A stretch of 64,000 bases of DNA from Patescibacteria group bacterium (GTDB taxonomy: Bacteria > Patescibacteriota > Minisyncoccia > Phycocordibacterales > BOKC01). Shown here in pieces: positions 7,788 to 63,466 of this stretch. The position numbers were made by a program, and so were the translations under genes. The notes under the pieces were generated by a model. The model searched no databases. It had not been told where the DNA came from and worked only from the letters and a program-made list of their open reading frames with translations. Position 1 is the first letter of the stretch, and every line of letters begins with the position of its first letter. The stretch lies in NCBI GenBank assembly GCA_038062955.1, contig JBBTWE010000001.1:320038-384037 (forward strand), written 5' to 3'.

Positions 7788-7801
7788 ATTGTTAAAATTT
7801 A

Positions 7802-7830
7802 AGATATCAGATTTAAGATTTAAGATTTTT
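7802..7830. repeat. Tandem 9-10-bp ATTTAAGAT repeats in the greA/uvrD intergenic region
   Basis: The same unit recurs at 845..888, 16292..16390, 23164..23194, 24535..24572, 61061..61100 and 63436..63466. Confidence 0.6.
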
Positions 7831-7964: not shown

Positions 7965-8480
7965 CTACTTGATTTCTATTATCTTATATTTAACCGAACC
8001 TTGTGGAGTGTTGAAAGAAAAAATATCACCTTTCTTTTTTCTCAAAATGGCTTGCCCAAATGGAGATTTGTTTGAAACTTTATTTTTACTTATATCAGCT
8101 TCTTCGGAACCAACGATTGTGAAAGTTTGCGGACCATTCCCTTTTTCTTTTTCTACTGTAACCACAGAGCTTACCGCAACTTCTTCGCTGTTATGAGCTC
8201 CTGTTATTTTTGCTGATTTGAGAAGGATCTCAAGTCTTGCAATTCTATCTTCAACGTTAGCCTGATCTCCACGAGCTTCCTGATATTCAGCGTTTTCTGA
8301 TAAATCACCAAGGGAACGAGCGTATTCCAGATGCTCGGCAATTTCTTTCCTTTTAGTTTTTTTGAGATGCTCTAACTCTTTTGTTAATTCACTAAATTTT
8401 TCTTTGGTTAAGTATTCTGTCTCATTCATAAATATATAACTTCCATATTTGGCCAATTTTGTAGTAAAAACTTGTCTCAA
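7965..8480 (-). CDS. greA: Transcription elongation factor GreA
   Basis: The coiled-coil N-domain plus FKBP-like C-domain and the LSENAEY motif are present. Confidence 0.9.
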   Translation of the reverse strand: MRQVFTTKLAKYGSYIFMNETEYLTKEKFSELTKELEHLKKTKRKEIAEHLEYARSLGDLSENAEYQEARGDQANVEDRIARLEILLKSAKITGAHNSEEVAVSSVVTVEKEKGNGPQTFTIVGSEEADISKNKVSNKSPFGQAILRKKKGDIFSFNTPQGSVKYKIIEIK

Positions 8481-8586
8481 ATCTGAAAGTTCTAAATTTC
8501 TATAGTAAATATTATTATAGTAATAAATAAATTGATTTTGAAATATTATACACCAAAACGTTAAAAGTCAATTCTAAATTTTAGAT

Positions 8587-8626
8587 AAAAAAAGCCCGCA
8601 GCGTTGGATCGTGGACAACGCTGCGG
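8587..8626 (-). terminator. Intrinsic terminator ending the minus-strand transcript of GC-rich island 1 (stem ccgcagcgttg/caacgctgcgg followed by a U-run).
   Basis: Hairpin followed by aaaaaaa on the plus strand, which reads as a U-tract on the minus-strand RNA. Confidence 0.6.
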
Positions 8627-9306
8627 ACCGAGGAACCTCTCGAGGTGCTAGACTTGTACGATTGGGGTCAAGGGTTACCAATCGGCACTCATTCGAGGAC
8701 TCCTCTCACACAGAACAGGGAATAAAGGGTGTTCAACCCTTTGATCCGTCTTCGCTCGCGGATCATGAGAATGCCGTCCACAGGTGTCGACAATGATCCT
8801 GTCGACTCATTCTCGCGATGCCGCTCGCTAGCCGGAATAAAAGCCGAGTCCTCAATCCATTCTCATGTGCGCCAGAACTTCTTCCTGTGAAGTCGTTGCC
8901 TACCATTCCACAGGTTGAGGAGAGCAAACAGACGAGGACTCGGATGTTCTTATTGAATGAAAGTGGTCCTTCCGAAGGGAAGCGACTCCAAAATGGCGGT
9001 ACTGGGGATTTCCCCCGGAAGGACAGTGTTCGGTGCTGTGCTGTATGTGAGAGAAAAAGAGCGAATCTGGGGAGTATTATAGATATCAGAGACCAAAAGT
9101 CAATGATTATAGCTGCCTGCCGGCAGGTATAAAAAAGGGGCCCCCATCTGCCGGTCAGAACAGAAGGGGGCCCACGAAACTTGATCCCGAGACCATATTA
9201 TGGAAAGGGCGGTTAGGGAGGGGGGTACTGGTCTCCATCACACAGCCACGGGATCTTCACCAAGAGCAGTCTGTTGAGTATTGTATACCTTAAAAAATAA
9301 AAGTCA
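8595..9306 (-). ncRNA. GC-rich island 1. This is a roughly 700-nt highly structured region with no ORF of 60 aa or longer and no SD on the transcribed (minus) strand. It is a candidate large structured ncRNA or a decayed cassette.
   Basis: The GC content is far above the flanks. Many long-range perfect stems are present (GGTCCTTCCG/CGGAAGGAC, GGGCCCCC/GGGGGCCC, GATCCCGAGACCA/TGGTCT..CGGGATC). It is bounded by the mrdA terminator and by its own terminator. It does not match RNase P, tmRNA or SRP signatures. Confidence 0.35.
8721..8844 (+). repeat. Modular GC-rich repeat, copy A. It consists of module 1 (aaagggtgttcaaccctttgatccgtcttcgctcgcggatcatgagaat), module 2 (ccgtccacaggtgtcgacaatgatcctgtcgac) and module 3 (cattctcgcgatgccgctcgctagccggaataaa).
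   Basis: It matches the copies at 13643..13768 (outer modules inverted, inner module in the same orientation) and 15036..15122 (lacking module 2). Confidence 0.7.
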
Positions 9307-9383
9307 ACCCCGTAGTGAATTTTGGCATAGTTTTCAACGTGTTTAGACCGAAGTCTAAACAATGCCAAAATCTACTACGGGGT
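9307..9383 (+). repeat. Conserved hairpin element with a 22-bp stem, copy 1. The left arm is ACCCCGTAGTGAATTTTGGCAT, the loop is 33 nt and the right arm is ATGCCAAAATCTACTACGGGGT.
   Basis: The arm sequences are identical to the copies at 17739..17803 and 30420..30486. As plus-strand RNA, 21 of 22 positions pair (including one G-U). Confidence 0.8.
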
Positions 9384-9389
9384 CAAGTA

Positions 9390-9426
9390 CAAAAATGGCC
9401 TGCAACGTCACACGACGTCGCAGGCC
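9390..9426 (-). terminator. Intrinsic terminator of the mre-mrdA operon (ggcctgcaacg..cgtcgcaggcc plus a U-run).
   Basis: The hairpin plus T-tract on the minus strand lies immediately 3' of mrdA. Confidence 0.55.
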
Positions 9427-9615
9427 AGGTCTCGAACAGCCCGAGACCACAAAATGTCCTTCTACCATGGTGATCACGAATCAGGAGGAGGAAGACCACC
9501 ACAGGAGGACAGAGCTGGGTACAGAAGAACGAACCTCTGATTATTATTCTAAACAATTGTTGAGAAAAGTCAAACCCCAAATCAGGTATTAGGGAAAAAT
9601 ACACAGGTACAGAGC

Positions 9616-11657: not shown

Positions 11658-11717
11658 GATTCAAGAAAAAATTTTAAAATACAGATTTCTAGAACTTTTA
11701 GATTTGGATACAGACCT

Positions 11718-11800
11718 AGGCGCAAGCGAGGAGCGAACCGAGACGTATTTGACAATACGTTGAGGGAGCACCGGAGCGAAGCAACGACGGTATGTGCCAA
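11718..11800. repeat. Intercistronic structured repeat, type A, copy 2 (ccgagACGTATttgacaATACGTtgagggag...cggagcgaagcaacg), located between mreC and mreD.
   Basis: Homologous to 1540..1625 and 20593..20682. Confidence 0.7.
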
Positions 11801-11814
11801 ATATATAAGTTCTT

Positions 11815-12639
11815 TTATTTTTCGATTGAGACCCAGCGTAACTCTGCTAGATTAACGGGTAACCTAACATAGATTTTCTTGAAAGAGGAAGCGGGACCAT
11901 GCTCAACTTCTTCGACTTTTCCCAATATTTTACTTCTCTCACCTGAAATCGTTATTTCATCTCCAATTTCCACTTTTACTTCTTGAGAAACTGAACCTAC
12001 TAAGTTCCCTCCTCCTCGCCCAATCATTTTAATCGGTAATTTTTGAGAACCTAAAAAAGCTTGGGTTTCAATTCCGCCCGAAGAGAATAATCTTATCTTG
12101 GAAGTTTGAGCTAACACCTGAACCACTTCGCCAAGCAAAATATTTTCGAAAAAAACTTTATTCTCTATTTCTATGTTGGCATTTCTACCGACATCTACTA
12201 TAAAAACGTCGTATGATGTGAGTGGTGGTCGAGCTAAAATAAAAGCCGGTATTGTTGATGTAGCTTCAGTTCTTTCTAAAATTGCCCGAAAAGTTTTATT
12301 TTCTTCCTCCAAAAGATCGAGATCAAATGATTTTGCTCTGCGATGAAGCAGTTCTTCTCTTAACTCAATATTCGTTTTTACTAAACTTTCTCTTGAGTTG
12401 ATCAGAGCTGTAAGGATAGAAAATTTATTCTCAATATAAATTTTTGATTTCCAAAAAGGATAAGCTACTCCACCCGCAATATCCGCAAAAACATTTCGCA
12501 GTGGCTTGGACAAAATTGAGAGAATAAAAATAAATAGGATAATACAAAGAGAGAGCAAAACGATTTTTTTGTAATTTCTTTTATTTTTGCGGCGGTAATT
12601 CATCGTCATTTGCAATGAGAACTTCTTTGTAATACTCAA
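11815..12639 (-). CDS. mreC: Rod shape-determining protein MreC. The real start is probably an internal Met, which would reduce the overlap with mreB.
   Basis: N-terminal TM segment, coiled coil and beta-rich C-domain are present, in the expected position in the operon. Length is 274 aa. Confidence 0.8.
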   Translation of the reverse strand: MSITKKFSLQMTMNYRRKNKRNYKKIVLLSLCIILFIFILSILSKPLRNVFADIAGGVAYPFWKSKIYIENKFSILTALINSRESLVKTNIELREELLHRRAKSFDLDLLEEENKTFRAILERTEATSTIPAFILARPPLTSYDVFIVDVGRNANIEIENKVFFENILLGEVVQVLAQTSKIRLFSSGGIETQAFLGSQKLPIKMIGRGGGNLVGSVSQEVKVEIGDEITISGERSKILGKVEEVEHGPASSFKKIYVRLPVNLAELRWVSIEK

Positions 12640-13642
12640 GATTTTCCAAGATTATTCCAGCGCCTCTCGCCATCGCAGTGAGTGGATCGGGAGCCACAAA
12701 AATAGGAATTTTTAGTGTTTCTTTGAGAACTTCTGGCCATCCGCGAAGCAGTGAACCACCACCAACAAGGTGTATTCCACGTTGCATCACATCAGATAGA
12801 ATCTCTGGAGGTGTCGTTTCTAAGACTTCTTTTACCGCTTCAATCAAAGTGTGGATCGACTGCGAAATCGCTTCCCTTATATCTCCGTCGGTCACCACCA
12901 CTTCTTTGGGCAAACCTGTAACCAAGTCTCGCCCTTTTATTATGGATTCCATTGGCGACTCTGCTATTACCGAGCCGATGGCAATTTTTACGTTTTCCGC
13001 TGTTTTCTCGCCAATTAAAATTTTGAACTCACTCCTGATGTAAGAAATTATATCGGAATTCAGTTTATCGCCGGCAATTTTTAAATTTTTTGATCTGACA
13101 ACTCCACCCAAAGAGATCACTGCGATATCGGTCGTACCGCCACCAATATCAACAATAACACTTCCAACAGGATCCATCACTGGGAGTTTTATTCCGATAG
13201 CCGCCGCCACAGGCTCTTCAACAACATGAACTTCACGAGCGCCGGCGCTCTTTGTTGCATCCCTTACCGCTCGAATTTCAACACTTGTAATACCTGACGG
13301 CACACCCACAACTACTCGGGGACCTAAAAATTTCTTCTTATCTTTTTGAGCTTTATTGATTAAATAGGTAATCATTTCTTCCGTCACTTCGTAATCAGAA
13401 ATCACGCCGTCAACTAGCGGTCTCACAGCTGTAATGTGTGGTGGTGTCCTTCCGAGCATTTTTTTTGCGGCAGTACCAACAGCGACAACCCGACCGGTCT
13501 TTTGATTGATAGCGACAACCGACGGCTCGTTTATTACAATCCCCTTACCTCTTACATACACCAAAGTATTAGCGGTACCGAGGTCGATTCCGATGTCGTT
13601 TGAAAAAAACTGTTTTAATTTTTTGTATAGGTTAGTTGCCAT
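12581..13642 (-). CDS. mreB: Rod shape-determining actin homolog MreB
   Basis: The GIDLGTANTLVY phosphate-1 motif and DIGGGTTD are present. Length is 353 aa. Confidence 0.93.
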   Translation of the reverse strand: MATNLYKKLKQFFSNDIGIDLGTANTLVYVRGKGIVINEPSVVAINQKTGRVVAVGTAAKKMLGRTPPHITAVRPLVDGVISDYEVTEEMITYLINKAQKDKKKFLGPRVVVGVPSGITSVEIRAVRDATKSAGAREVHVVEEPVAAAIGIKLPVMDPVGSVIVDIGGGTTDIAVISLGGVVRSKNLKIAGDKLNSDIISYIRSEFKILIGEKTAENVKIAIGSVIAESPMESIIKGRDLVTGLPKEVVVTDGDIREAISQSIHTLIEAVKEVLETTPPEILSDVMQRGIHLVGGGSLLRGWPEVLKETLKIPIFVAPDPLTAMARGAGIILENLEYYKEVLIANDDELPPQK

Positions 13643-13768
13643 TTTTTATTCCGGCTAGCGAGCGACATCGCGAGAATGTACCGTCTACAGGTGTCGACAA
13701 TGACCCTGTCGACCTCATTCTCATGATGCGCGAACGAAGACGGATCAAAGGGGTTTAATACCCTTTAT
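13643..13768 (-). repeat. Modular GC-rich repeat, copy B. It forms the proS-mreB intercistronic leader and abuts the mreB ATG.
   Basis: It is the reverse complement of copy A in its outer modules (tttattccggctagcgagcg..., ...gacggatcaaaggggtttaataccctttatt), with the GTCGAC module retained in the plus orientation. Confidence 0.7.
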
Positions 13769-15010
13769 TATTTTGAGTGTCTCATTCAAATCCGTAATCT
13801 TAATTTCTCCGGACTTTCGGTTTTTTAATTCCAGTTTATTTTCTAGAAGCATCTTCTCGCTTATCACAACTCTCCATGGAATTCCGAGAAGGTCTGAATC
13901 AGATAATTTTTCCCCAGCGCTTACCTTTCTATCATCATGAAGCACTTCAAATCCATTACTTTCAAATTCTTTCAAAATCTTTAACGCTTCGGCAGTAACT
14001 TTCTCTCCTTTTCCAGCAATTTCAATCAGATGAATTCGGAACGGAGCAATTGATTCCGGCCAGACAATTCCCTTCCCGTCTGACAGAACTTCAACAACCG
14101 TACCCATAAGACGACTTGGGCCCATACCATAACAACCCATAATAACTGGCTTTTCTTTGCCTTTTTCATCAATATATTTAAGCCCCAGAGCATCTGAAAA
14201 ACGTGTGCCCAATGAGAAAATATTTCCTACTTCAATTGCTTTTTCTTCTTTAAGATCTTTTTTATTTAGCTTCAGATTTTCCAGCACTTCATCTGTATAA
14301 ACTTCTTTATTAACTGCTAGTTTCTTTTTTTCGTCTACATAAATAACATCTTCTCCGGCCGGAGTTACGGTTTGAAACTCATGGGAATATTTTGAAAATA
14401 TTCCACCAGAAGCAAAAGTCATAAATGTTGTAGCACCTAATCCCAATCTTTCAAATACATTCATGTAGGCAATTTTTGCACGTTCATAGAATTCTTCATG
14501 TTCTTTTTCATCTCGAGCAAAAGAATACATATCTTTCATTTGAAATTCACGGCCACGCATAATACCGCTCTTTGCGCGCACTTCATTTCTAAATTTTGTC
14601 TGAATTTGATAAATAGCTTTCGGTAAATCTTTGTAAGACCGAATATGATCTTTTAGAAGTCGAGTCAAAGGTTCTTCATGACTAAAACCAAGCCCCAACT
14701 TTCCTCCGTTTTTGAGCTCGGTCTTAAACCAGACGTCCACTTTCGCATCCTCCCATCTGTCAGTGGCACTCCACACTTCTTTATCCTGCAAAACTGTTAA
14801 AAGCATTTCTTGACCCCCGATCTTATTCATTTCTTCCCGAACAATGTCTTCAATTTTACGAAGAACAATAAGTCCCAAAGGTAAGAAATCATAAACGCCC
14901 GCGAGCTCTTTATTGATAAAACCACCACGGATTAAAAGCTCGGCATTTTTTGAGACCTCATCTTTTGGGGCCTCCTTTCTAGTTTTAGTGAAAAGATGGG
15001 ATTGTCTCAT
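13745..15010 (-). CDS. proS: Prolyl-tRNA synthetase (short form without an editing insertion)
   Basis: The class II motifs REFQMKDMYSF and GCYGMGPSR are present. The N-terminus aligns with ProRS (RGGFI..GVYDFLPLG..VLRKIEDIVREEM). A C-terminal anticodon-binding domain is present. Confidence 0.85.
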   Translation of the reverse strand: MRQSHLFTKTRKEAPKDEVSKNAELLIRGGFINKELAGVYDFLPLGLIVLRKIEDIVREEMNKIGGQEMLLTVLQDKEVWSATDRWEDAKVDVWFKTELKNGGKLGLGFSHEEPLTRLLKDHIRSYKDLPKAIYQIQTKFRNEVRAKSGIMRGREFQMKDMYSFARDEKEHEEFYERAKIAYMNVFERLGLGATTFMTFASGGIFSKYSHEFQTVTPAGEDVIYVDEKKKLAVNKEVYTDEVLENLKLNKKDLKEEKAIEVGNIFSLGTRFSDALGLKYIDEKGKEKPVIMGCYGMGPSRLMGTVVEVLSDGKGIVWPESIAPFRIHLIEIAGKGEKVTAEALKILKEFESNGFEVLHDDRKVSAGEKLSDSDLLGIPWRVVISEKMLLENKLELKNRKSGEIKITDLNETLKIIKGIKPL

Positions 15011-15035
15011 GATTATTTGAAAAACTTAGAATAAA

Positions 15036-15122
15036 TGGTATTAACCCTTTGATCCGTCTTCGTTCGCGGATCATGAAAAAGAGTACTTTTTCGCGATTCC
15101 GCTCACTAGCCGGAATAAATAA
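15036..15122 (+). repeat. Modular GC-rich repeat, copy C (modules 1 and 3 only), in the rseP-proS intercistronic region.
   Basis: ggtattaaccctttgatccgtcttcgttcgcggatcatga ... cgattccgctcactagccggaataaa. Confidence 0.65.
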
Positions 15123-16291: not shown

Positions 16292-16390
16292 AAAAGATAT
16301 ACGATTTCAGATTTAAGATATTAGATTTACAAAATTGAGATTTTTAATTTTTTTGAAATCATAAATCATATATCGTAAATCTTAAATTAT
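16292..16390. repeat. Tandem ATTTAAGAT-type repeats upstream of rseP and downstream of frr
   Basis: gatttcagatttaagatattagatttac...aaatcatatatcgtaaatcttaaatta. Confidence 0.55.
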
Positions 16391-17599: not shown

Positions 17600-17732
17600 T
17601 ATTCTCTCTAAGGAAAGGTGGCGGTATTCGGCAACGTTCTTCAGTCGGAATCATCACCTACCCCAGGGCTCATGTGCACACACTCCTCCTTTGACTGCTG
17701 GTCTGCTTGGTGTGTGCGTGAGCCCTTTTTTT
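17600..17732 (+). ncRNA. Small GC-rich plus-strand transcript of island 2. It may encode a short peptide (GTG start at 17618) and ends at an intrinsic terminator.
   Basis: A promoter lies upstream. The terminator is gggctcatgtgcacacac...gtgtgtgcgtgagccc plus TTTTTTT. The segment shares caacgttc with the island-3 transcript. Confidence 0.4.
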
Positions 17733-17738
17733 ACCCCG

Positions 17739-17803
17739 TAGTGAATTTTGGCATTGTTACTTTTGCAATGGAGTTGTTATGCCAAAATCTACTACGGGGT
17801 TAT
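17739..17803 (+). repeat. Conserved 22-bp-stem hairpin element, copy 2. It sits directly after the island-2 terminator and overlaps the atpC stop codon.
   Basis: The arms are identical to copies 1 and 3. The loop, tgttacttttgcaatggagttgtt, is related to the copy-3 loop (TTGCAA core). Confidence 0.8.
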
Positions 17804-18033
17804 TTAATCAAAATAGTCACCTTATCCCCCGAAACTTCGGCGAAACCAGACTCAATAGGAAAATTGAGATTTTCCGCTTCATCTTTGATTTTAATATCTC
17901 CCTTTTTTAAAATTGTAATAAGAGGAATGTGATGATCGAGAATAGAAATCTCCCCTTCCCCTGCGGGGAGACTGACAACTTTTCCTGTGCCCTCATAGAG
18001 AGTTTTTTCAAGAGAATGAATTGATATTTTCAT
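17800..18033 (-). CDS. atpC: ATP synthase F1 epsilon subunit (short, N-terminal beta-sandwich only)
   Basis: A 77-aa protein in the last position of the atp operon. The GxxxxLPxG..ISIL..H pattern is present. Confidence 0.8.
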   Translation of the reverse strand: MKISIHSLEKTLYEGTGKVVSLPAGEGEISILDHHIPLITILKKGDIKIKDEAENLNFPIESGFAEVSGDKVTILIK

Positions 18034-18052: not shown

Positions 18053-18175
18053 TAGAACTTCCAGATTTGAGACAAGTTGTTTGATAAAACTGAGTACCGA
18101 AGCGAGACGTATGTACTTATACGGCGAAGCAAGGAACGGAAGTTTTAGCAAAGAAATTGGCCAAATGTGGAAGTT
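18053..18175. repeat. MITE-like 125-bp element, type B, copy 1, with terminal inverted repeats (TIRs, tagaacttcca / tggaagtt) and an internal CGTATgtacttATACG hairpin. It lies between atpD and atpC.
   Basis: About 90% identical to 26716..26843. Confidence 0.75.
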
Positions 18176-18179
18176 ATAA

Positions 18180-20540: not shown

Positions 20541-20592
20541 AATATTTGTAAACTTTGGGACTTAATAGAATTTAATTAATTTGGATGCAATT

Positions 20593-20682
20593 CGAGGCGC
20601 GAGTGAGAACCGTACCGAGACGTATTTAATAATACGTTGAGGGAGGCTCGGAGCGAAGCAACAAAGAAGTGCGCCGAATTAA
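20593..20682. repeat. Intercistronic structured repeat, type A, copy 3, between atpA and atpG.
   Basis: ggcgcgagtgagaaccgtaCCGAGacgtatttaataatacgttgagggaggCTCGGagcgaagcaac. Confidence 0.7.
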
Positions 20683-20688
20683 CAAATT

Positions 20689-22212
20689 CTATTTAAAATA
20701 TTTCTTGAAATCTGAAATAATCGTTTTAATCTTTTCATCAATCTTCGCTGTAATCTCGGCAGTCTCTCGAAGTTCTTTCAAGACCTCTGCATGTCTTTCA
20801 TTCATAAATTCTAAGAGTTTCTTTTCAAACAAAGAGACTGACGCAAGAGGCACGTCATCAATATAACCATTTACTCCGGCATATAGAGAAATAACCTGCT
20901 TTTCAAATGGCATACTCTCATATTGTGGCTGTTTCAATAATTCAACCAATCGTTGTCCACGATTAATCTTTTTTTGAGTTGCTTGATCGAGTTCCTGACC
21001 AAACTGCGCAAAAGCCGCAAGTTCTCTAAATTGGGCGAGTTCAAGCCTCAAAGTACCCGCAACTTTTTTCATAGCTTTTGTCTGGGCCGATGAACCGACA
21101 CGCGACACTGAAAGTCCGACGTTGATAGCTGGTCTTATTCCCTGATAGAAAAGTTCGGGTTCAAGATAAATTTGCCCGTCAGTAATGGAAATAACGTTTG
21201 TTGGCACATAAGCTGAAATATCTCCGAGTTGAGTTTCAATAATTGGGAGCGCAGTAAGAGATCCTCCTCCAAATTCTTTACTTAATCTCGCCGCTCTTTC
21301 AAGAAGTCTTGAGTGAAGATAGAAAATATCTCCAGGATAAGCTTCGCGGCCAGGAGGGCGTCGCAGAAGAAGAGAAACTTGTCTGTATGCCCAAGCGTGC
21401 TTCGAAAGATCATCGTAAATTACGAGAGCGTCCTTTCCTTTATCCATAAAATATTCACCGATAGCACATCCAGCATAAGGAGCTAAATATTGGAGGGACG
21501 CAGGAGAAGCGGCGCCAGCAACAACCACGACCGTGTAATCCATTGCTCCAGACTTTTTTAATTGTTCGACAATGTGAGCAACTTTTGATTCTTTTTGACC
21601 AATCGCAACATAAATACAGATCGGAGTGCCATTTCGAACATCATTTTTCTGATTGATGATTGTATCGATAACGATTGCGGTTTTTCCGGTCTGACGATCA
21701 CCAATAATAAGCTCACGCTGACCTCGGCCGATTGGAATCACCGCGTCAATTGCCTTAATACCAGTTTGAAGTGGCACTTTTACCGATTCTCTGGTTATAA
21801 CTCCTGGAGCAACTTTTTCGAGTGGATAGTGCTCAACTTTATTTTTATCAAATGCTTTTCCTCCATCAATTGGTTCGCCAAGTGGATTGATTACTCTACC
21901 CAAAAGTTCCGAGCCAACGGGAATCGAAAGAATGCGGCCGGTTCCCTTTACTCTCTGTCCTTCAATAACTTTGGTTGAATCTCCGAGAATAATCGCGCCG
22001 ATCGTGTCTTCTTCAAGGTTCAATGCAAGCCCGGTTACTTTTTCGCTTTCTTTTTCGTTTTCAAATTCCAAAATTTCAGAAGACTTTACTCCAGATAATC
22101 CTCGGATGATTGCGACCCCATCCCCCACGCGTAAAACTTCGCCGACATTGCTAACAGACGGACTGCCTTTAATGCCAGAAATTTCTTTTTTTAATTGTTG
22201 TAAAATATCCAT
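20689..22212 (-). CDS. atpA: ATP synthase F1 alpha subunit
   Basis: Walker A (GDRQTGKT) is present. Length is 507 aa. Confidence 0.95.
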
Positions 22213-23708: not shown

Positions 23709-24524
23709 TTAATGGCTTTCCTCGTGTGCCGTCGTAGCAGCTCCAAGAAACATTATTGTAAGAACTGTGAAGATTAAAGCTTGAATGAAACCAACGAAAA
23801 TTTCAAGGCCCAAAAATGGAATCGGAGCGATATAAGGCACAAGGAATGCAATGATGACGAGAAGCACTTCCCCAGCAAAGACGTTACCGAAAAGTCGGAA
23901 AGAGAAAGAGATAATTTTTGCAATTTCGCTCACAAACTCCAAAAGCCCTACAAAAAATTTTATTGGGCTTTTAAAACTAAAAAACTTGCCGATATGATCT
24001 CGAACGCCAATTGTTACGAGCCCAACAATATGACTCATGGTTACAATGATAAGCGCGAGCGCGAGAGTCATGTTGAGATCAGAGTTAACCGAACGAAGAA
24101 GAGGCACGAATGATTCCTGCGGTTCTTCAGTTTCTCCTTTCGTGACCTCTGTCACAATCTCACCTTTATTTTCTGCATGGATTGGTGCTTCTTCAACATG
24201 AGTAAATCCTATACTTCCTACTCCTGGCAAAATTCCAATCCAGTTAGCACAAAGAATAAAGATAAAAATTGTAGCCGCAACCGGGAAAAACTTTCGTACA
24301 ACCTCTTTGCTTCCGGCAATTGTTTCTAAAAAATCAGCAAGTTTGGTAATAATAACTTCAGTAATGCTCTGCAACTTACCAGGAATTTCTTTTATGTTTC
24401 GAGAAATAATTATTGAAATAATTATCAAAAAAACCATCACCACCCACGAGGTAAGAAGTGTGTTTGTAACTGGTATTCCGAGAAAGGTAAATAATATTTC
24501 TGGAGCAATTGAGACGTGAACCAT
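23709..24524 (-). CDS. atpB: ATP synthase Fo a subunit
   Basis: FRLFGNVFAGE carries the conserved Arg of the a subunit. The protein is polytopic. Confidence 0.9.
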   Translation of the reverse strand: MVHVSIAPEILFTFLGIPVTNTLLTSWVVMVFLIIISIIISRNIKEIPGKLQSITEVIITKLADFLETIAGSKEVVRKFFPVAATIFIFILCANWIGILPGVGSIGFTHVEEAPIHAENKGEIVTEVTKGETEEPQESFVPLLRSVNSDLNMTLALALIIVTMSHIVGLVTIGVRDHIGKFFSFKSPIKFFVGLLEFVSEIAKIISFSFRLFGNVFAGEVLLVIIAFLVPYIAPIPFLGLEIFVGFIQALIFTVLTIMFLGAATTAHEESH

Positions 24525-24602
24525 AGAGTTAAAGGATTTATGATTTAAGATTTATGATTTAAGATTTCTAATTCATGAACCTTGAATTTACTTCTTAAAC
24601 TT

Positions 24603-26715: not shown

Positions 26716-26843
26716 GGTAGAACTTTCAGATTTGAGACAAGTTGTTTGATAAAACTGAGCACTGTAGCGAGACGTATTTAATAATACGGCGAGTGAAGAG
26801 CGGAAGTTTTAGCAAAGAAATTGGCCAAATATGGAAGTTCTAC
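26716..26843. repeat. MITE-like 125-bp element, type B, copy 2, between holB and mreB-2. Its right TIR overlaps the mreB-2 stop codon.
   Basis: ggtagaactttcagatttgagacaagttgtttgataaaactgag...gaagttttagcaaagaaattggccaaatatggaagttctac. Confidence 0.75.
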
Positions 26844-30205: not shown

Positions 30206-30420
30206 AGAAGCAGGTCGTCTAACGTAGCACAACGCCACAGGACGATCTGTGCCGAACAACGTTCGCAGGAGGACACATGCGCAAGATGAAGCTCTCCAGC
30301 TGATACGACAAGAAGTCGGCCCGTTGTGGAGAACCTTTGAGCCGAAAGAGAACTGTAGGCTCGATGGAACTTCTAACACTCACCCGTTGTGTCCCCCAAA
30401 GGACATGACGGGTGTTTTTT
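30206..30420 (+). ncRNA. Small GC-rich plus-strand transcript of island 3. It contains an SD plus an 8-codon ORF (AGGAGG-N5-ATG MRKMKLSS) and ends at an intrinsic terminator.
   Basis: The terminator is cacccgttgtgtcc..ggacatgacgggtg plus TTTTTT and lies immediately before hairpin copy 3. Confidence 0.4.
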
Positions 30421-30486
30421 ACCCCGTAGTGAATTTTGGCATCGTTGCCTTGCAACAGAGTTGCTATGCCAAAATCTACTACGGGG
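30420..30486 (+). repeat. Conserved 22-bp-stem hairpin element, copy 3, followed by T8.
   Basis: accccgtagtgaattttggcat-cgttgccttgcaacagagttgct-atgccaaaatctactacggggt. Confidence 0.8.
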
Positions 30487-30534
30487 TTTTTTTTGAATCT
30501 ATCACTCTACCTTTTCTAGTGGTACTATAGTGTC

Positions 30535-40499: not shown

Positions 40500-40676
40500 A
40501 TGCCTGAAAAGGAATTTTACAGAGCGGAGGATCTGGCGAGATTATTGGAGGTAAATATTATGACGATTTACCGATACATTAAGGCTCGGCGCTTGAAAGC
40601 GTACAAGATTGGACGCGAATTTCGTATTGAAAAAAAAGAATTCGAATCATTTTTAAATAAAGTGAGCACAAAATAG
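40500..40676 (+). CDS. Small excisionase/MerR-type HTH DNA-binding protein (58 aa). It is a candidate controller of the R-M operon.
   Basis: LARLLEVNIMTIYRYIKARRLKAYKIGREFRIEKKEF fits the HTH_17 / excisionase pattern. The gene ends 2 nt before the R-M start. A TATAAT lies at 40486. Confidence 0.6.
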   Translation: MPEKEFYRAEDLARLLEVNIMTIYRYIKARRLKAYKIGREFRIEKKEFESFLNKVSTK

Positions 40677-40678
40677 TT

Positions 40679-43666
40679 ATGAGCAAAATATTATTAGAAA
40701 AACTTGTTGCGAAATATGACTCGGATAGAGAGCATTATTTGTCTTCTCATTACAATGAGACGCAATTAAGAGCCGATTTTCTTGACCCTCTGTTTGACCT
40801 ACTGGGATGGGATATAAGAAACACCGAAGGAAAACCAACAAACGAAAGAGAAGTTTTGTTGGAAGAAGGTTTAAAAGAAGATGTTGCATCTAATACAAAG
40901 AAACCTGATTACACCTTCAGGTTGTTCTCCGAAAGAAAATTTTATCTTGAAGCAAAGAAACCGAACGTCAAAATTGAAACAGACACAGAACCAGCAAAGC
41001 AAATTAGACGCTACGGGTTTACTGGAAAATTAAAGATTTCAGTCTTATCTAATTTTGAATATTTAGCTATTTACGATTGTTCTGAAAAGGTAGAAGAATC
41101 AGACAGTGTCTCAAAATCAAGAATAAAGATTTACCACTACAAGGAGTACGCAGAAGCTTTTGAGGAAATTCAAAAGGAACTTGGGCGTGAAAGTGTATAC
41201 AGTGGGGCTTTTGATAAAACTTGGGAGCATATTGAGGAAAGACTAAAACTGTTTAGCGTTGACAGTCTGTTTCTTAATCAAATTAACCAATGGAGACTGG
41301 TCTTGGGAAAAGAAATCTTTAGTCTTAGAAATGACTTAAATGAGGCACAGCTAAACGATATCGTCCAAAGATATATCAACAGCATCATCTTTTTAAGGGT
41401 TCTAGAGGACAGAAACCTTGAAGATTATAAAACCCTATTGGGTATTGCCAGTGCTGATAATTTCAAAGATTTGGTCGAAAAATTCAATCAAGCCGACAAG
41501 AAATACAACTCTGGTCTTTTCAATCATGGTTTAACGGAAGAAATTATAACCAATAATAGCTCGGCTTTTTGGTTGATTATCAAACAACTTTATTATCCTG
41601 AAAGCACTTATTCGTTCGCTGTCTTTGCCTCCGATATTTTAGGAAATATATATGAAATATTTTTGGCTCAATACCTCGCTATTAAAGACGGTGAGGTTAC
41701 TTTAGAGAAAAAGCCTGACCATATTGGTAGAGATGTTGTAACAACGCCAACTTACATTATTCAAGACATTCTTCGGCAGACTGTTCGCGAGTACTGTAAT
41801 CAGAAAACAGACAAAGAAATTCTAGCTTCTAAATTTGCGGATATTGCTTGTGGTTCAGGAGCCTTTCTGCTTGAAACTTATCAATTGGTAAGTGACATTT
41901 TGATTGACTACTATATCGCGAATTCCCCAGAGGTTCTTATTCAAACAGGAGTAAGTACCTACAAACTTCCATTTGAGCTAAAAAGAAAAGTTCTCGAATC
42001 TTGTTTATTTGGAATCGATAAAGATTTTAATGCTGTTGAAGCATGTAAATTCGGACTCCTACTAAAACTTCTTGAAGATGAAAACAATTCAAGTATCCCT
42101 ACCCCAGCATTACCAGAAATATCAAACGTAATACATTTTGGTAACAGCTTGGTTGAAAGTTCTGAAACAACAGAAGCAAGTCGTTCAACAATTAATCCAT
42201 TTGATTTTAAAGACATTAAGTTCGATGTGGTAGTTGGAAACCCGCCATACATGACTACCGAAGACATGAAGGAACTCACTCCTTTAGAACTTCCTTTATA
42301 CAAAGAGAAATTCTCAACTGCATACAAACAGTTTGATAAGTATTTCTTATTCGTTGAAATGGCTTATCGTCTTCTCGATGAGAATGGATATTTAGGATAT
42401 ATCGTACCGAGTAAGTTTACAAAGGTGGGTTCAGCGAAGATGCTTCGTGAATTACTAAAGAGCAATAAAGCTGTAAGTAAACTTATTTCCTTTGGCGCGA
42501 ACCAGATTTTTGAAGATAAAACTACGTATACTTGTTTGCTAATTGTTCAGAAGAAAGAACACCCTTCTTTTGAGTTTTTGGAAGTTAGAGATTTATTAGA
42601 TTGGAAAACTCGAAATATTAAGCAAGAAGAGTTTGAATCAGTTGCATTTGATGAATTGGAGGAAGATTGGGTTCTTGTTGCAGGAAAACTCAAAGAGGTT
42701 TATGAGAGAATAAACTCACAGAGCATTACTCTTTCTGAACTAATTGGTGATGAAAATATTTACAATGGCATTCAAACCAGTGCCAATGACATATATATCA
42801 ATACGCCCAAGAAAGAAGATAAGCGATACTTCTATTTTCAGAAGGATGGCAAAGACTGGACAATAGAGAAAAAGCTTACAAAGCCATACTTTAAGACATC
42901 GGGTGGTGTAGATAATTTAAATACTTATCGCTCATTGAAAGCAAATTCCTTTGTTATTTACCCATACGAAAAAACTCCAACGGGTGAAATTCAATTTATC
43001 GAAATTAGCCGATTGATGACCGAGTTTCCAAAAGCCTATGAATATCTATCTGCATATAAAGATAAGTTAAGCGCATCTACAAGAGATATTAAGCCCGAAC
43101 CTACTACCCCAGATGAGTGGTACAGATACGGTAGACATCAATCTTTAGACAAGTGTGACGTACCAGCAAAAATAATTGTAGGCGTTCTCTCTCAAGGTAA
43201 TAAATATGCAATTGATTACTCTGGCGCTTTGATTTCTTCTGGTGGTACCGCAGGTTACTGCATGATAACTCTCCCGTCTGATTGTGAATATTCGATTTAT
43301 TACATTCAAGCACTTCTAAATTCAAAATATCTTGAATGGTACTCCGCCCTATATGGTGAAGTATTCAGAGGTGGATACGTAGCTAGAGGAACAAAGGTTC
43401 TTAAAAAACTCCCGATACGAGTGATTGATTTTACAAACCCTAGTGAGAAAGAACTTCACGACGAGATATCTCATATAGAAGAGGGTTTAATTAAGACTCA
43501 AGAAAAAATTGACCAAAATTTAAGCAATGAGCGAGAGTTAGTACCATTGCAAAGAGAGTTCGATTCTATGAAAAAGGAATTAGAAATTTCCTTAAAGAAA
43601 CTATATGGACTCGGAGAAAGCGACCAAAAGATTCCATTGATATCTCAAATATATGAAACTGATTAA
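40679..43666 (+). CDS. Type IIG restriction-modification enzyme of the Eco57I/MmeI type. It has an N-terminal PD-ExK nuclease (D..EAK), a central gamma-class N6-adenine MTase and a C-terminal TRD.
   Basis: The nuclease motif is PDYTFRLFSERKFYLEAKK. The MTase motifs are DIACGSGAFL (motif I) and VVGNPPYM (motif IV). Length is 995 aa (Eco57I is 997 aa). Confidence 0.85.
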   Translation: MSKILLEKLVAKYDSDREHYLSSHYNETQLRADFLDPLFDLLGWDIRNTEGKPTNEREVLLEEGLKEDVASNTKKPDYTFRLFSERKFYLEAKKPNVKIETDTEPAKQIRRYGFTGKLKISVLSNFEYLAIYDCSEKVEESDSVSKSRIKIYHYKEYAEAFEEIQKELGRESVYSGAFDKTWEHIEERLKLFSVDSLFLNQINQWRLVLGKEIFSLRNDLNEAQLNDIVQRYINSIIFLRVLEDRNLEDYKTLLGIASADNFKDLVEKFNQADKKYNSGLFNHGLTEEIITNNSSAFWLIIKQLYYPESTYSFAVFASDILGNIYEIFLAQYLAIKDGEVTLEKKPDHIGRDVVTTPTYIIQDILRQTVREYCNQKTDKEILASKFADIACGSGAFLLETYQLVSDILIDYYIANSPEVLIQTGVSTYKLPFELKRKVLESCLFGIDKDFNAVEACKFGLLLKLLEDENNSSIPTPALPEISNVIHFGNSLVESSETTEASRSTINPFDFKDIKFDVVVGNPPYMTTEDMKELTPLELPLYKEKFSTAYKQFDKYFLFVEMAYRLLDENGYLGYIVPSKFTKVGSAKMLRELLKSNKAVSKLISFGANQIFEDKTTYTCLLIVQKKEHPSFEFLEVRDLLDWKTRNIKQEEFESVAFDELEEDWVLVAGKLKEVYERINSQSITLSELIGDENIYNGIQTSANDIYINTPKKEDKRYFYFQKDGKDWTIEKKLTKPYFKTSGGVDNLNTYRSLKANSFVIYPYEKTPTGEIQFIEISRLMTEFPKAYEYLSAYKDKLSASTRDIKPEPTTPDEWYRYGRHQSLDKCDVPAKIIVGVLSQGNKYAIDYSGALISSGGTAGYCMITLPSDCEYSIYYIQALLNSKYLEWYSALYGEVFRGGYVARGTKVLKKLPIRVIDFTNPSEKELHDEISHIEEGLIKTQEKIDQNLSNERELVPLQREFDSMKKELEISLKKLYGLGESDQKIPLISQIYETD

Positions 43667-45257
43667 AAGTGCCACAAAAGAAAAATTGCGGGGCGGTTTC
43701 TATACCCCAAACAGTATTGTCTCATTTATTTTGAAATGGGGTTTTAATGGTAATCCTAAAATGGATATATTGGAGCCAAGTTGTGGAGATGGCGTATTTC
43801 TTGAGGAAATCAGAAATGGTGCATACAAATACAACTCAATAACAGGTGTAGAACTTGATAAAAAGGAAGCTGAAAAATCTCGGAACCTTAATGTAAAAAA
43901 AACCACAATAGTTAATTCTGACTTCCATAAGTATTGCTTACAAACAGATGATAAGTTTGATTTTATTGTCGGAAACCCACCTTACATTCGGTTCCAATAC
44001 TTCGATAAAAAACAGCAACAATTTGCATCTAAAATTTTTGATAAGGCTGGCTTAAAATATTCAAAGCTTACAAACGCTTGGGTTTCTTTCGTCGTTGGCT
44101 CAAGTCTGCTTCTAAAAGAGAATGGGAAACTGGGCTTTGTTTTACCTGCTGAAATATTACAGGTTTCGTACGCACAACCATTGAGAGAATTTCTATCCCA
44201 CTTCTACAACAAAATAACAATCGTTTCTTTTAAGAAGCTAGTCTTTCCTGATATACAACAAGAAGTGGTTTTGCTTTTATGCGAAAAGAATAAAACAGAC
44301 TCTCATTTGATTGAACATATTGAGCTGACAGATGCAGACGAACTATCTAAAACTGATATTTATAAATTTAAAACACCGCAAAAGAAAATAGATTTTAAAA
44401 CCAACAAATGGACATTCTATTTCTTAAACCAAAAAGAGATAGATTTTCTACTAAAATTAAAAGAGAAGAAGACCATCCCAACACTGGGTGAGCATACCAA
44501 AGTAGAGGTTGGTATTACTACTGGAGCGAATCCATTTTTCACTGTGCCTCTTTCCACCGTGAAGTCTTATGAAATGGAAGACTTTGCTTATCCAATGGTT
44601 GGGAGAAGCGTGCAGGTTCCCAGCGTGATTTTCACTAAAAAGGACTGGAGTGAGAATAATAAAAAAGATTCTAGGTCTCATCTGTTGGTATTTCCAAAAA
44701 TGGCTGATTTAAAAAATAGAACTGGTGCAAAGAAATATATTAAAAGTGGTGAATCCGAAAAACTACATGAAGGATATAAGAATAAAATACGAGACGAGTG
44801 GCAGATTGTCCCTTCATTAAGAATCTCCGATGCTCTCTTCATCCGTAGAAATAATCTTTACCCAAAGCTAATCATCAATAGCGCAAAGGCATATACCACT
44901 GACACTATGCATAGAGTAACCCTCAACAAGGGTGTGGACACCGAAGCTTTAGTAGCAAGTTATTACAACTCGCTTTCTTTAGCATTTGCAGAGATATCTG
45001 GTCGTAGTCATGGTGGCGGTGTTTTGGAACTCATGCCAAATGAAGCGGAAGAAATTCTTGTTCCATATCATAAAAATAACACTAAATTACTACCCATTAT
45101 TGATGAAATGATGCGTGCTAAAAAAAACATCTCGGAGATACTAAAAGTAACAAATCAAAAGATTTTAAAAGATAATTACGGTTTTTCTACGGCAGATATC
45201 GAATTGGTTGATGGTATTCGAAAGAAGTTATCTGAAAGAAGGTTAAATAGAAGTTAA
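43653..45257 (+). CDS. Companion N6-adenine DNA methyltransferase (M.Eco57I-like) with a C-terminal TRD
   Basis: The motifs EPSCGDGVFL and IVGNPPYI are present. It overlaps the R-M gene by 14 nt. Length is 534 aa. Confidence 0.85.
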   Translation: MKLIKSATKEKLRGGFYTPNSIVSFILKWGFNGNPKMDILEPSCGDGVFLEEIRNGAYKYNSITGVELDKKEAEKSRNLNVKKTTIVNSDFHKYCLQTDDKFDFIVGNPPYIRFQYFDKKQQQFASKIFDKAGLKYSKLTNAWVSFVVGSSLLLKENGKLGFVLPAEILQVSYAQPLREFLSHFYNKITIVSFKKLVFPDIQQEVVLLLCEKNKTDSHLIEHIELTDADELSKTDIYKFKTPQKKIDFKTNKWTFYFLNQKEIDFLLKLKEKKTIPTLGEHTKVEVGITTGANPFFTVPLSTVKSYEMEDFAYPMVGRSVQVPSVIFTKKDWSENNKKDSRSHLLVFPKMADLKNRTGAKKYIKSGESEKLHEGYKNKIRDEWQIVPSLRISDALFIRRNNLYPKLIINSAKAYTTDTMHRVTLNKGVDTEALVASYYNSLSLAFAEISGRSHGGGVLELMPNEAEEILVPYHKNNTKLLPIIDEMMRAKKNISEILKVTNQKILKDNYGFSTADIELVDGIRKKLSERRLNRS

Positions 45258-45376: not shown

Positions 45377-45610
45377 CATAAATTTATTTCTTCTTTTTCT
45401 TTACCCCCCCTACCAAAAACGCCTTTGGTGTGGGAGTTTATATTACTCGTCTCCTCCAAAAAAGCGTTTAAGTCTGATTCTTTGATCCGCCAAACACCGA
45501 CATAAAATTGCTTTAAGGGTTGATACCATTTTACCCCTTCTTAAATTCATTGTCGAAATCGCCGTCTTTTGTCATAAAAGAAAAATGTCGGCTTTCATTG
45601 ATATTTGCCT

Positions 45611-45655
45611 CCGCGGGTAGCCTGCCTGCCGGCAGGGAGTTTCTCTCTCTACGAG
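45611..45655. repeat. A 45-bp element (ctccgcgggtagcctgcctgccggcagggagtttctctct), the left member of an inverted pair with 49219..49262.
   Basis: The reverse complement matches 49219..49262 except for a 4-nt indel. The core is the CTGCCGGCAG palindrome. Confidence 0.65.
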
Positions 45656-45980
45656 AGCAGTATAGGTTTCCCATTTTTTCGGATTTAACATCCTCAAAAA
45701 TATGGGAGAACCTTTTCGAATCCTACCTCGCAAGCAAAATTATTTGCTTGCTCGCGAGTAGGAATTTCTTTCATTACATGAACAGTATACCTTTTGGCTA
45801 AAATTTTCATCCTCGACAAACTTGGATTCAATTTTAGGCTCAAAAGCTTTTCGAATCCTAACGAAGGTGCTATTCAAAGCACCTTCTCCCGCAGAAGCCA
45901 CAAATGACAAAATCCACCGAAAAGGTGGATTTGTGTCAGTGGCTCCGCGGGTAGGATTCGAACCTACGACCAATCGCTTA

Positions 45981-46535
45981 CATTTGTTCCAAAGTTGCCT
46001 TTGGCATGGACTATATCATCATCCTTCATCGGCTGTTTGCAGATGGATGGGATGTGAGGCGCTTCGACTGAATTTTTCAGGCTACTCTCTTTCGAGATAG
46101 TCTCTGAACCTTCCTGCTGATTAGCAGGCTTGGCTGCTGATTGCCCACGTGGGGTTTCCAGCAATTCACCTCATTTTTCATCCTAAATTCCTTTAGGAAG
46201 CTGCGTGATGCCGTCATGTATTTCCATGTGACAATTTGCACAAACGAGTACGCACTTCTTAATTTCCTCTTCGATTTTGGCCCAGGAACGTGTTATGCCT
46301 CCAGAAGCAAGATCGAATTTCTTTGTAGATGGATCGATATGGTGGAAACTAAGAGATCGTTGGCATTTTTTGTAACCACATATAAAACATTTACTGCCTT
46401 TCGTTGCTCTAGCCATTTCACGAAGTTTTCTTCTTCTTCGTTTTACAGCTTCTCGCATGTACTCGGCACGGTCGGCATAGGTTCTTTTTTCTTTCCTGGT
46501 ATACATTAATAAAGTATACCACAGAACCTTCTGAC
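45981..46535 (-). mobile_element. Group I intron (within the anticodon loop of the tRNA) carrying an HNH homing-endonuclease ORF.
   Basis: P7 strands GACUA / UAGUC (cagAGACTAtc ... atATAGTCc), GNRA-capped hairpins (tctcGAAAgaga, ccaaagGCAActttgg), a terminal omega-G and the HNH ORF are all present. Confidence 0.7.
46183..46506 (-). CDS. HNH homing endonuclease (intron-encoded)
   Basis: CFICGYKKC...SFHHIDP...N...CANCHMEIH is the C-x2-C/HH/N/C-x2-C-H HNH signature. Confidence 0.8.
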   Translation of the reverse strand: MYTRKEKRTYADRAEYMREAVKRRRRKLREMARATKGSKCFICGYKKCQRSLSFHHIDPSTKKFDLASGGITRSWAKIEEEIKKCVLVCANCHMEIHDGITQLPKGI

Positions 46536-49127: not shown

Positions 49128-49218
49128 GGTCACTTTCTTTTTTCTCAAGATGTCAATACTACTTTGAGAAACTTCTTTTGAAAAAATGGGAAATCTATAC
49201 TGTTCTCGTAGAGAGAAA

Positions 49219-49262
49219 CTCCCTGCCTGCCGGCAGGCAGGCTACCCGCGGAGTCTACAAAC
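49219..49262. repeat. A 45-bp element, the right member of the inverted pair with 45611..45655.
   Basis: agagaaactccctgcctgccggcaggcaggctacccgcggag. Confidence 0.65.
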
Positions 49263-60976: not shown

Positions 60977-61261
60977 GTTTGTTTAGCTGTATTTTACAAC
61001 TTTTGGCGTAAAAAGTCATAATTCAAGCCAACAAAGTTAGAAATTTGATCTAAATTAAAAAATCTTAAATCTTAAATCCTATATCTTAAATCTCATTTGG
61101 GGGTTGACTTTTATGTGGATATAGATTAAGCTTGTAGCACAAAAGTTAATCGTCTCAAGTAAAGTCGATTTAGAGCATTATATTTTTGTACTTATTAGGT
61201 TAAGCACAGGTTTTCCAAAAATCGCATTATATGCGACCAAGGAAGGCCTAAAAGCAATTTC

Positions 61262-62473: not shown

Positions 62474-62658
62474 TCGCCGAGAAATTTTGGAGAATTTCTT
62501 TGTTGTAACAATTTTTTTCTCCTGCACAGTATTAGTTATACAGCTTAGTACGAAAAAAATCGTTACGCCTCGAACTTCTCTCAAAATATCTCAGCTTGTA
62601 AATTCTCGAGAAAATTTTGTGTAAAAAGAAAGGGCGACCATGGCTGTTGCCTTGGTCG

Positions 62659-63255: not shown

Positions 63256-63466
63256 GCCCTCCTCCTGCTGTGGCAAAAACGTTGTAAATCAGTGAGTTTT
63301 TAATGAACAATTTTCTGTGTCCAGTATACACCCATTCGTGTATTTTGTCAAGCACAAATTGTATATAACAAATAGACGGCTAGGAACAAGGGTGTTTTAA
63401 TACATAGGCCGAGCCTATGTATGATGATTTTATTCTTGAATCGTGAATCATAAATCTTGAATCTGA

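Follow-up and report, generated by a model that had tools for sequence, protein, structure and literature searches.

The subject of this analysis is a 33-nt DNA unit that recurs in a 64,000-nt stretch (the window) of a metagenome-assembled genome (MAG) annotated "Patescibacteria group bacterium" and coming from Hainich groundwater; the window corresponds to positions ~322,329-386,328 of contig CAYIIC010000001.1. With a probability of roughly 0.6, we read the unit as a non-autonomous mobile DNA hairpin of Patescibacteria/Parcubacteria that is similar to the repetitive extragenic palindromes (REPs), and that comes to be nested in other repeats in the manner of the bacterial interspersed mosaic elements (BIMEs) and the Neisseria intergenic mosaic elements (NIMEs). 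A first-pass annotation of the window had described three copies (A, B, and C) of a modular GC-rich element in which our unit is module 2, the inner one, and modules 1 and 3 are the outer ones. We refer to the repeat made of modules 1 and 3 as the outer element.

The unit and the selection on its pairing

The unit starts with an unpaired 12-nt tail, CCGTCYACAGGT, followed by a stem of 7 bp that is closed by a pyrimidine-rich 7-nt loop, usually ending in CC. The pattern CCGTCYACAGGTGTCGAC-N9-GTCGAC has exactly four matches in the window (shuffled sequences give an expectation of ~0.02-0.04), and the shorter pattern GTCGAC-N9-GTCGAC has exactly the same four (Table 1). A covariance model run with the filters off finds no fifth or degenerate copy in the window. 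In metagenomes, a scan with ACAGGTGTCGAC-N9-GTCGAC returns at least 109 loci, and from these we have collected 54 unique instances among the matches listed, to which the counts per instance given below refer. The tag CCGTCY, which is absent from the search pattern, precedes every low-GC match listed (36-50% GC). High-GC matches of the scan are due to chance, and we do not take them for units.

The first-pass annotation considered the GTCGAC hexamers as repeats that a recombinase might recognise. They are not a pair of direct-repeat sites. The first and the last base of the N9 are complementary in 53 of the 54 instances (32 A-T, 17 G-C, 3 T-A, and 1 C-G; the remaining instance is mismatched), and therefore the two hexamers are the arms of one 7-bp stem. 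Among the 47 distinct sequences, 99.7% of the stem cells are paired, and double changes are observed for four of the seven base pairs, in 27 cells. None of 500 shuffles matches these values, and neither does any slid register. Moreover, there are diverged copies which keep the tail and swap the whole stem (GTCGATC/GATCGAC, GTCAATC/GATTGAC, and GTCTGCC/GGCAGAC), and the covariance model built on the unit copies also recovers diverged copies in the metagenome loci. The pairing of the unit hairpin is under selection. As for the level at which it acts, a G-U pair occurs in a single cell among the 47 distinct sequences, and this near-absence argues for a structure of the DNA rather than of the RNA. 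What is conserved, we infer, is a DNA-level hairpin together with a sequence-specific tail, and not GTCGAC itself.

Could the hexamers nevertheless be the sites of a programmed invertible switch, bound by a recombinase of the serine or tyrosine type that would flip the segment, perhaps in the regulation of mreB? Of all the explanations that we consider, this is the one to which we give the least credence. The arrangement GTCGACN-N7-N'GTCGAC does resemble two inverted binding arms around a 7-bp spacer, but the arms change in a compensatory manner (the hexamers become GTCGAT/ATCGAC in the first of the stems above, and the other two are swapped likewise), and the spacer differs between copies, so that recombination between them would be blocked. 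Copy B does stand in the mreB leader, but the four assemblies described below show no heterogeneity, and copies are found in ~40 unrelated contexts with no partner site. The window and its flanks encode no recombinase.

Host repeats, insertion sites, and orientation

The outer element is ~90 nt long and folds into several hairpins (z-scores -2.7 to -4.2). The matches to modules 1 and 3, for which the chance expectation is zero, are on the forward strand in copies A and C and on the reverse strand in copy B, and module 2 is on the forward strand in both A and B. The coordinates and strands in Table 1 thus confirm that the outer modules of A and B are reverse complements of each other around an inner module of constant orientation, an orientation which the first-pass annotation had not misjudged. 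It was also right that copy C is without module 2: the loop AGTA stands where A and B hold the unit. Copy B can be written as AG + unit + TA, that is, as an insertion exactly in the middle of the loop of copy C. The central stem that surrounds this loop shows a compensatory change, from GAGAATG/CATTCTC in A and B to GAAAAAG/CTTTTTC in C. The proS-mreB site that harbors copy B has identical sequence and orientation in four independent assemblies (an NCBI MAG, two from ENA, and one from Logan), and their agreement excludes an artefact of assembly as the source of the arrangement.

The outer element is itself an insertion. We have compared the window with a sister species in which ProS is 89% identical and the gene order frr-rseP-proS-mreB-mreC-PBP2-greA-uvrD is the same. 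There, proS and mreB overlap by 8 nt (...AAAATAATCAAAAATGCCTAG...), and there is no copy B. At the empty site the sister species has AAAATAATCAAAAATGCC, and the corresponding sequence of the window is AAAATAAT[AAAGGG...CTAGCCGG]AATAAAAAATGG, from which it follows that copy B with its nested unit is an insertion of 120-odd nt; the insertion site carries an AAT(AAA) duplication of 3-6 bp. Copy B parts two genes that overlap in the sister species. The final seven codons of proS and its TGA stop (13745-13768, with the stop at 13745-13747) come from module 1 of copy B, and the opposite end of the copy directly adjoins the start codon of mreB (13640-13642). The ProS of the window has 421 aa and ends in ...IKGIKPL*, vs. 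415 aa and ...IIKNA* in the sister species. Copy C, which lies between rseP and proS, is absent from the corresponding place in the sister species. Both positions, that of B next to the mreB start and that of C, are those given in the first-pass annotation. For copy A the sister species offers no empty site, as the segment that hosts this copy is absent there. We found no terminal inverted repeats (TIRs) in the outer element. A scan of genome contigs with a 19-mer of the outer element gave 10 chance matches in unrelated taxa, and in Rfam we found no match to A, B, C, the 600-bp region discussed below, or the spacer between PBP2 and greA.

In that spacer (8481-9615 on the reverse strand), three to four mini transcription units follow each other in tandem. 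Each of them has a promoter of the form TTGACT-16-TAnAAT and a terminator rich in GC, and the spacer has 8 promoter-like sites vs. 2.0 expected. Two of the mini transcription units are conserved in the sister species with 73-75% identity, and copy A is found inside a third, window-specific one, between its promoter and its terminator. The spacer of the sister species holds an rve_3 gene, of the insertion sequence (IS) type, instead.

The unit is dispersed, with sharp 33-nt boundaries, through dozens of low-GC Patescibacteria/Parcubacteria metagenome contigs, and it occurs in at least five unrelated host contexts. The outer element is one of them; its family includes A, B, C, the metagenome loci L050, L069, L074, and L122, and L139 from the sister species. 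Three of its sites can be occupied. Site 1, in module 1 between TTTGA and YCCGTCT, has a unit in L050, L069, L074, and L122, and all four are forward. At site 2, the central loop, the unit of A is forward and those of B, L050, and L122 are reversed; the loop is empty in C, L069, L074, and L139. Site 3 is inside module 3, where L139 has a degenerate unit. As for the other hosts, a non-palindromic AT-rich sequence, GTCATTTTACA[ ]TTGATnTTTAnACTTT, has the unit at one and the same junction, forward in L112/L018 and reversed in L021/L090. In L034, L057, L059, and L084 the unit is bracketed by direct repeats of CTTTATAACTTT, and in Parcubacteria contigs it is found inside a GTCATTGCGA...TCGCAATGAC palindrome. 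Finally, a miniature inverted-repeat transposable element (MITE) of ~230-330 bp, with TIRs, carries from one to at least four units head to tail (L051, L109, L015, L036, L107, L037, and L115). The TIRs of this MITE are ~22-45 bp long (TAAGAGCCTATCTCCAATCTAA...), the MITE is present at different loci of related metagenome genomes, and it has other nested hairpins too.

The first-pass annotation had proposed that module 2 is a mobile or invertible piece which enters a pre-existing hairpin. The empty central loops, the three sites, and the hosts other than the outer element, at least four in number, uphold the independent unit. The other half of the proposal, a switch inverted by a recombinase, is not supported, given the single orientation seen in four assemblies, the lack of a recombinase in the window, and the presence of both orientations in a host that is not a palindrome.

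How, then, do A and B come to differ? One possibility is that both derive from one composite, and that the loop between the arms ATC-NN-GAGAATG / CATTCTC-NN-GAT was flipped in one of them, by recombination or by template switching during replication. Small inversions of hairpin loops do occur in chloroplast non-coding DNA, and the case at hand is like them in that the same short inverted repeats enclose a loop segment in one orientation or the other. Here the unit is bracketed by a perfect 7-bp stem that can be extended to an imperfect one of ~12 bp, and only two differences in 33 positions separate the units of A and B, which have the loop ATGAYCC in common. This loop, however, is also present in other genomes (L019, L059, and L045), and the bases at the junctions are not as expected: a clean flip of B predicts GAGAATG-TA-unit-CT-CATTCTC, and copy A is GAGAATG-unit-T-CATTCTC, which takes three extra indel bases. 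In addition, the two orientations are also found in the non-palindromic host, where a flip between stem arms is impossible, a single orientation is found at B in four assemblies, and, unlike a chloroplast loop, the unit is dispersed to many other loci. We consider a loop flip unlikely.

We favor instead that the REP-like unit was inserted twice. Under this reading, units would be copied in trans by a structure-specific enzyme and would land preferentially in hairpin loops and beside CCGTC motifs. The center of the outer element is palindromic, so that both strands would offer the same 5'-GAGAATG-loop to the enzyme, and on either strand the 5' end of the unit would follow GAGAATG(TA) and its 3' end would precede (C)TCATTCTC. 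Because of this palindromic center, insertions on the two strands would be locally equivalent, and they would differ only in the lie of the asymmetric outer arms. Such equivalent insertions would leave a forward unit in A and a reversed one in B without any inversion step. The outcome would be a mosaic of nested small repeats comparable to the BIMEs of E. coli or the NIMEs of Neisseria.

Two properties of the flanks can be compared with controls. A C[CT]GTC motif within 2 nt after the unit is seen in 9 of the 54 instances, vs. 0.44% at control positions. Flanks that form strong hairpins (≤ -15 kcal/mol) are seen in 15% of the instances and in 6% of the controls; the distribution of hairpin flanks is not shifted overall (Mann-Whitney p=0.67), and it is the strong-hairpin tail alone that is enriched. 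An excess of flanking direct repeats (13/54 vs. 3%) was considered as a sign of target duplication and rejected, because one composite family and AT-rich flanks dominate it. A scan of viral contigs for the unit gave no match.

Finally, the unit may be mainly a functional site (a DNA hairpin to which a protein binds, a sequence for uptake or signaling, or a stem-loop of an RNA) that is maintained by selection and spread by recombination, in which case its mobility would be apparent only. The 12-nt tail is extremely well conserved even in the diverged copies, 33 of the 54 instances are intergenic, with most of the others at the ends of open reading frames (ORFs) or in short dubious ORFs, and copy A lies within a mini transcription unit. 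On the other hand, the boundaries are sharp at 33 nt in unrelated flanks, the unit is nested at several sites and forms tandem arrays, and a few copies are inside large ORFs, occasionally in frame (33 nt is 11 codons). Neither the near-absence of G-U pairs nor the lack of an orientation bias with respect to the neighboring genes (8 vs. 5) is what an RNA or a signal would suggest. The tail has CCGTCT in common with the Neisseria uptake sequence GCCGTCTGAA, which is probably a coincidence; with five units in ~82 kb of this genome, or ~1 per 16 kb, the unit is far less dense than uptake sequences are. A functional site without mobility is, in our judgment, improbable.

The inverted pair of units and other features of the window

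The remaining two units of the window face each other. They are part of two arms of 38 nt (62660-62697 and 63219-63256), 95% complementary, that flank 531 bp of 52% GC in a genome of 39% GC. The first-pass annotation saw in them the TIRs of a 600-bp element, and one can extend this view to a transposon at 62660-63256 that would have left the units of A and B as its solo ends or as footprints. The near-identical inverted arms do exist, but they do not delimit a mobile element. What they enclose is a gene, a 141-aa ORF on the reverse strand that belongs to a conserved family and whose homologs in three other genomes are flanked neither by units nor by any other inverted repeats. Moreover, the right-hand unit has a host hairpin of its own, GCCACAGCAGGAG / CTCCTGCTGTGGC (63207-63275), of which it occupies the loop, and a paralog of this hairpin, with compensatory changes in its arms and carrying the same unit without a partner, is found ~7.2 kb past the end of the window (L132 18905-19060). 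The left-hand unit comes directly after a different hairpin, GGCGACCA...TGGTCGCC (62633-62659), downstream of a VanY-like gene. An origin of module 2 as a TIR is therefore very improbable. Because the interior is a genuine family gene whose homologs in those three genomes lack flanking units, we conclude that the 600-bp region is not a transposon, and that it is a small gene with a unit independently inserted in each of the flanking spacers.

The family of the 141-aa ORF has ~40 homologs by full HMMER and 44 by a profile search of 5.8 billion proteins; a single-sequence, word-indexed search with the ORF had given no match, and the family was found later by full HMMER. It has the motif DxLWVLQAYLRGKVLRQKAYRP...WWGxRP (LWVLQAYLRGKVLRQKAYRP), its named members belong to Candidatus Niyogibacteria, the Patescibacteria group, and one Terrimicrobiaceae MAG, and the homologs are everywhere GC-rich relative to the genome that hosts them. 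The ORF has no match in Pfam or PHROG, it is not a detectable transposase and not HUH-like, and its AlphaFold model (mean predicted confidence, pLDDT, 79) has no fold match in the PDB. A distant plasmid search with the 600-bp region gave no match. The possibility that the 531-bp interior is a structured RNA was rejected, as it folds worse than shuffled sequence.

Table 1. Coordinates of the unit, the outer element, and other features (window positions, unless a metagenome locus is named; all units are 33 nt long)
Feature	Position	Strand	Remarks
Copy A, outer ~90-nt multi-hairpin repeat with forward unit in central loop	8720-8844	+	nhmmer E=6e-24
Copy A, module 1	8737-8768	+	
Copy A, central stem	8767-8773 / 8808-8814		GAGAATG / CATTCTC
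Copy A, unit (module 2)	8774-8806	+	tail CCGTCCACAGGT, stem GTCGACA/TGTCGAC, loop ATGATCC; 55.0 bits, E=4e-17
Copy A, module 3	8812-8841	+	
Copy B, outer repeat	13643-13769	-	
Copy B, module 3	13645-13674	-	
Copy B, central stem	13672-13678 / 13716-13722		
Copy B, unit (module 2)	13681-13713	+	reversed relative to outer element; 56.9 bits
Copy B, module 1	13721-13752	-	
Copy C, outer repeat without unit	15030-15122	+	E=9.5e-25
Copy C, module 1	15045-15076	+	
Copy C, central stem	15075-15081 / 15086-15092		GAAAAAG / CTTTTTC; loop AGTA at 15082-15085
Copy C, module 3	15090-15119	+	
Left-hand unit of inverted pair	62660-62692	+	G-C closing pair, loop CCTAACC; 56.1 bits
141-aa ORF between the two inverted units	62724-63149	-	small uncharacterised GC-rich family, mainly Patescibacteria (candidate phyla radiation, CPR)
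Right-hand unit of inverted pair	63224-63256	-	loop CCCAACC; 56.2 bits
Second palindromic repeat family	9117, 25981, 35406, 45621, 49222		CCTG(C/T)CTG(C/T)CG(G/A)CAGGCAGG
AT-rich arrays of 7-nt period	846-894, 7794-7828, 16294-16385, 24519-24567, 61048-61096, 63433-63467	both	AAGATTT / ATCTTAA
Further repeat family	1526-1646, 11703-11823, 20580-20700		
Further repeat family	18053-18178, 26718-26842, 8435-8496		
Further repeat family	9301-9388, 17727-17805, 30415-30492		
Restriction-modification gene pair	40500-45257		type IIG / MmeI-like; 995 and 534 aa
Inverted repeats of 72 nt	45609-45680 / 49180-49253		near-perfect; bracket 3.5 kb
Group I intron	45988-46271	-	RF00028, 78 bits, full-length model match
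MITE with units, metagenome locus L051	2740-2960		
MITE with units, metagenome locus L036	3850-4220		
MITE with units, metagenome locus L107	3680-4090		
MITE with units, metagenome locus L115	6000-6330		

For a small genome, this one is unusually rich in short dispersed repeats. A second palindromic family has one of its copies ~300 nt from copy A, and a related hairpin is joined to the unit tail in a metagenome locus (L035 9930-9970). AT-rich arrays with a period of 7 nt are found at gene boundaries, and arrays of a similar kind flank units in metagenome loci, for example in L057. There are at least three further families of intergenic repeats of 40-120 nt.

Some features of the window touch neither the unit nor the outer element. 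The group I intron is surrounded by small unannotated ORFs and is not in a tRNA, since the window has none according to ARAGORN. It belongs to the 3.5 kb that the 72-nt inverted repeats bracket, together with a GH114 gene and a 451-aa ORF, and this segment could be a composite mobile or invertible one. The restriction-modification gene pair has upstream of it a 58-aa HTH_17 gene and an AlbA_2 gene.

Mobility, relatives, and significance of the unit

The mobility of the unit is inferred from its distribution, and we have no empty/filled pair for the unit at an orthologous chromosomal site. This is the first of several observations that weigh against a REP-like mobile hairpin. The primary set was found by an exact 18-base pattern, and the invariance of those bases in it holds by construction; the evidence independent of the search pattern is that of the first six bases of the tail, the closing pair, and the diverged copies. 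Only a minority of the units are in hairpin loops, and a consistent target duplication for the unit is not found among the instances listed. By GC skew there is no replication-strand bias (20 vs. 16), unlike what is known for single-strand transposition of the IS200/IS605 type. Nor has a mobilizing enzyme come forward: Pfam finds no transposase or recombinase in the window or in ~9 kb on either side (and, specifically, Y1_Tnp has no match in the window or its flanks), a phmmer search with the E. coli RayT against the six-frame ORFs of the window and of ~0.7 Mb of unit-bearing loci has no hit at E ≤ 10, and clustering of the genes next to units yields no recurrent gene, only housekeeping genes. 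The last two observations of this kind come from the comparison with described REPs. These have their tags abutting the stem, whereas in the unit CGTC is 7 nt and CTAC 4 nt away from it, and they usually form head-to-head or tail-to-tail dimers, head-to-tail ones being rare, whereas most units are singletons, and head-to-tail arrays of two to at least four units are found in L115, L107, and L036.

Which known elements does the unit resemble, then? BIMEs and NIMEs are intergenic mosaics of short palindromic units and other short repeated motifs. Like the BIMEs of E. coli and the NIME/dRS3 mosaics of Neisseria, our unit is a short palindrome, found in either orientation, that is joined with other short intergenic repeats. 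Unlike in them, it sits inside a discrete repeat (in a hairpin loop or beside CCGTCT) and does not alternate with spacer motifs, and the genome that hosts it has ~1 Mb and short intergenic regions. As for the outer element, MITEs with nested inserts are known from the ERIC/IRU variants with internal inserts, the Correia elements, and the Rickettsia RPEs. The outer element is like them small and non-coding, has a short AT-rich duplication, and overlaps gene ends, to the point of rewriting the C-terminus of ProS. A classical MITE would have TIRs, which the outer element lacks, and the 33-nt unit is far smaller than a MITE and has neither TIRs nor a target duplication.

REPs have been described as stem-loops with an unpaired terminal tag, GTAG or CGTC, directly at the stem or at most 2 nt from it; REPs nested in host palindromes are on record, the CGTC REPs have no dedicated transposase, and the dRS3 of Neisseria is CGTC-1 (Di Nocera, De Gregorio & Rocco 2013, PMC3733652). 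The tail of the unit can be parsed as C-CGTC-YAC-AGGT; CGTC spans its positions 2-5, and its positions 5-8 read CTAC, which is complementary to GTAG. Like REPs, the unit falls in the range of 20-40 nt, has compensatory stem variants and a conserved unpaired terminal tail with tag-like motifs, appears mostly extragenic (33 of the 54 instances), has sub-families of stem and loop that coexist in one genome, and sometimes nests in host palindromes; as for the CGTC REPs, no associated transposase was found for it. The differences, besides those of tag distance and arrangement, are a loop of 7 nt, a host phylum that is not among the eight reported (PMC3733652), and the lack of a REP-associated tyrosine transposase (RAYT) in the window and loci. 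With REPIN/RAYT and with IS200/IS605 (HUH Y1) it shares a hairpin with a short motif nearby, no TIRs, no regular duplication, and a preference for the insertion point (CCGTC); unlike them, it has no Y1 transposase detected in the window, its flanks, and the loci, and it consists of one hairpin rather than of a doublet or of a left-end/right-end pair. Elements derived from IS200/IS605 (PATE-like) have different subterminal hairpins at both ends, and the unit differs from them as well in being without replication-strand bias. In a full-text search of the literature we met with no account of REP-like or MITE-like repeats from CPR/Patescibacteria. The unit thus appears to be an undescribed relative of the REPs, and not a demonstrated member of a described REP family.

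A more radical version of this reading, which we hold to be possible but clearly less probable than a REP-like unit, is that tagged hairpin repeats of this kind form a separate, new class, and that the enzyme by which they are copied, distinct from the RAYTs and from all known transposases, cuts at CCGTC. If so, such an enzyme would explain why CCGTC comes directly after many units, and the head-to-tail arrays would be accounted for, as they resemble products of a rolling-circle or nick-to-nick process. It would then be possible, by a co-occurrence analysis across Patescibacteria, with their genomes of ~1,000 genes, to identify the mobilizer of the CGTC-type REPs.

The mosaic principle is already known; what makes the case worth following through the whole genome is its lineage, together with the strong evidence for the structure and an enzyme that our searches have not found. 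The highly reduced genomes of Patescibacteria (CPR) still carry several interacting families of tiny non-coding repeats, and these repeats nest in each other, rewrite the ends of genes, as with ProS, and split genes that overlap, as with proS and mreB. A lineage of ~1,000 genes with an apparently active tagged hairpin unit is, moreover, a favorable place in which to find the enzyme of the CGTC REPs by phylogenetic co-occurrence.

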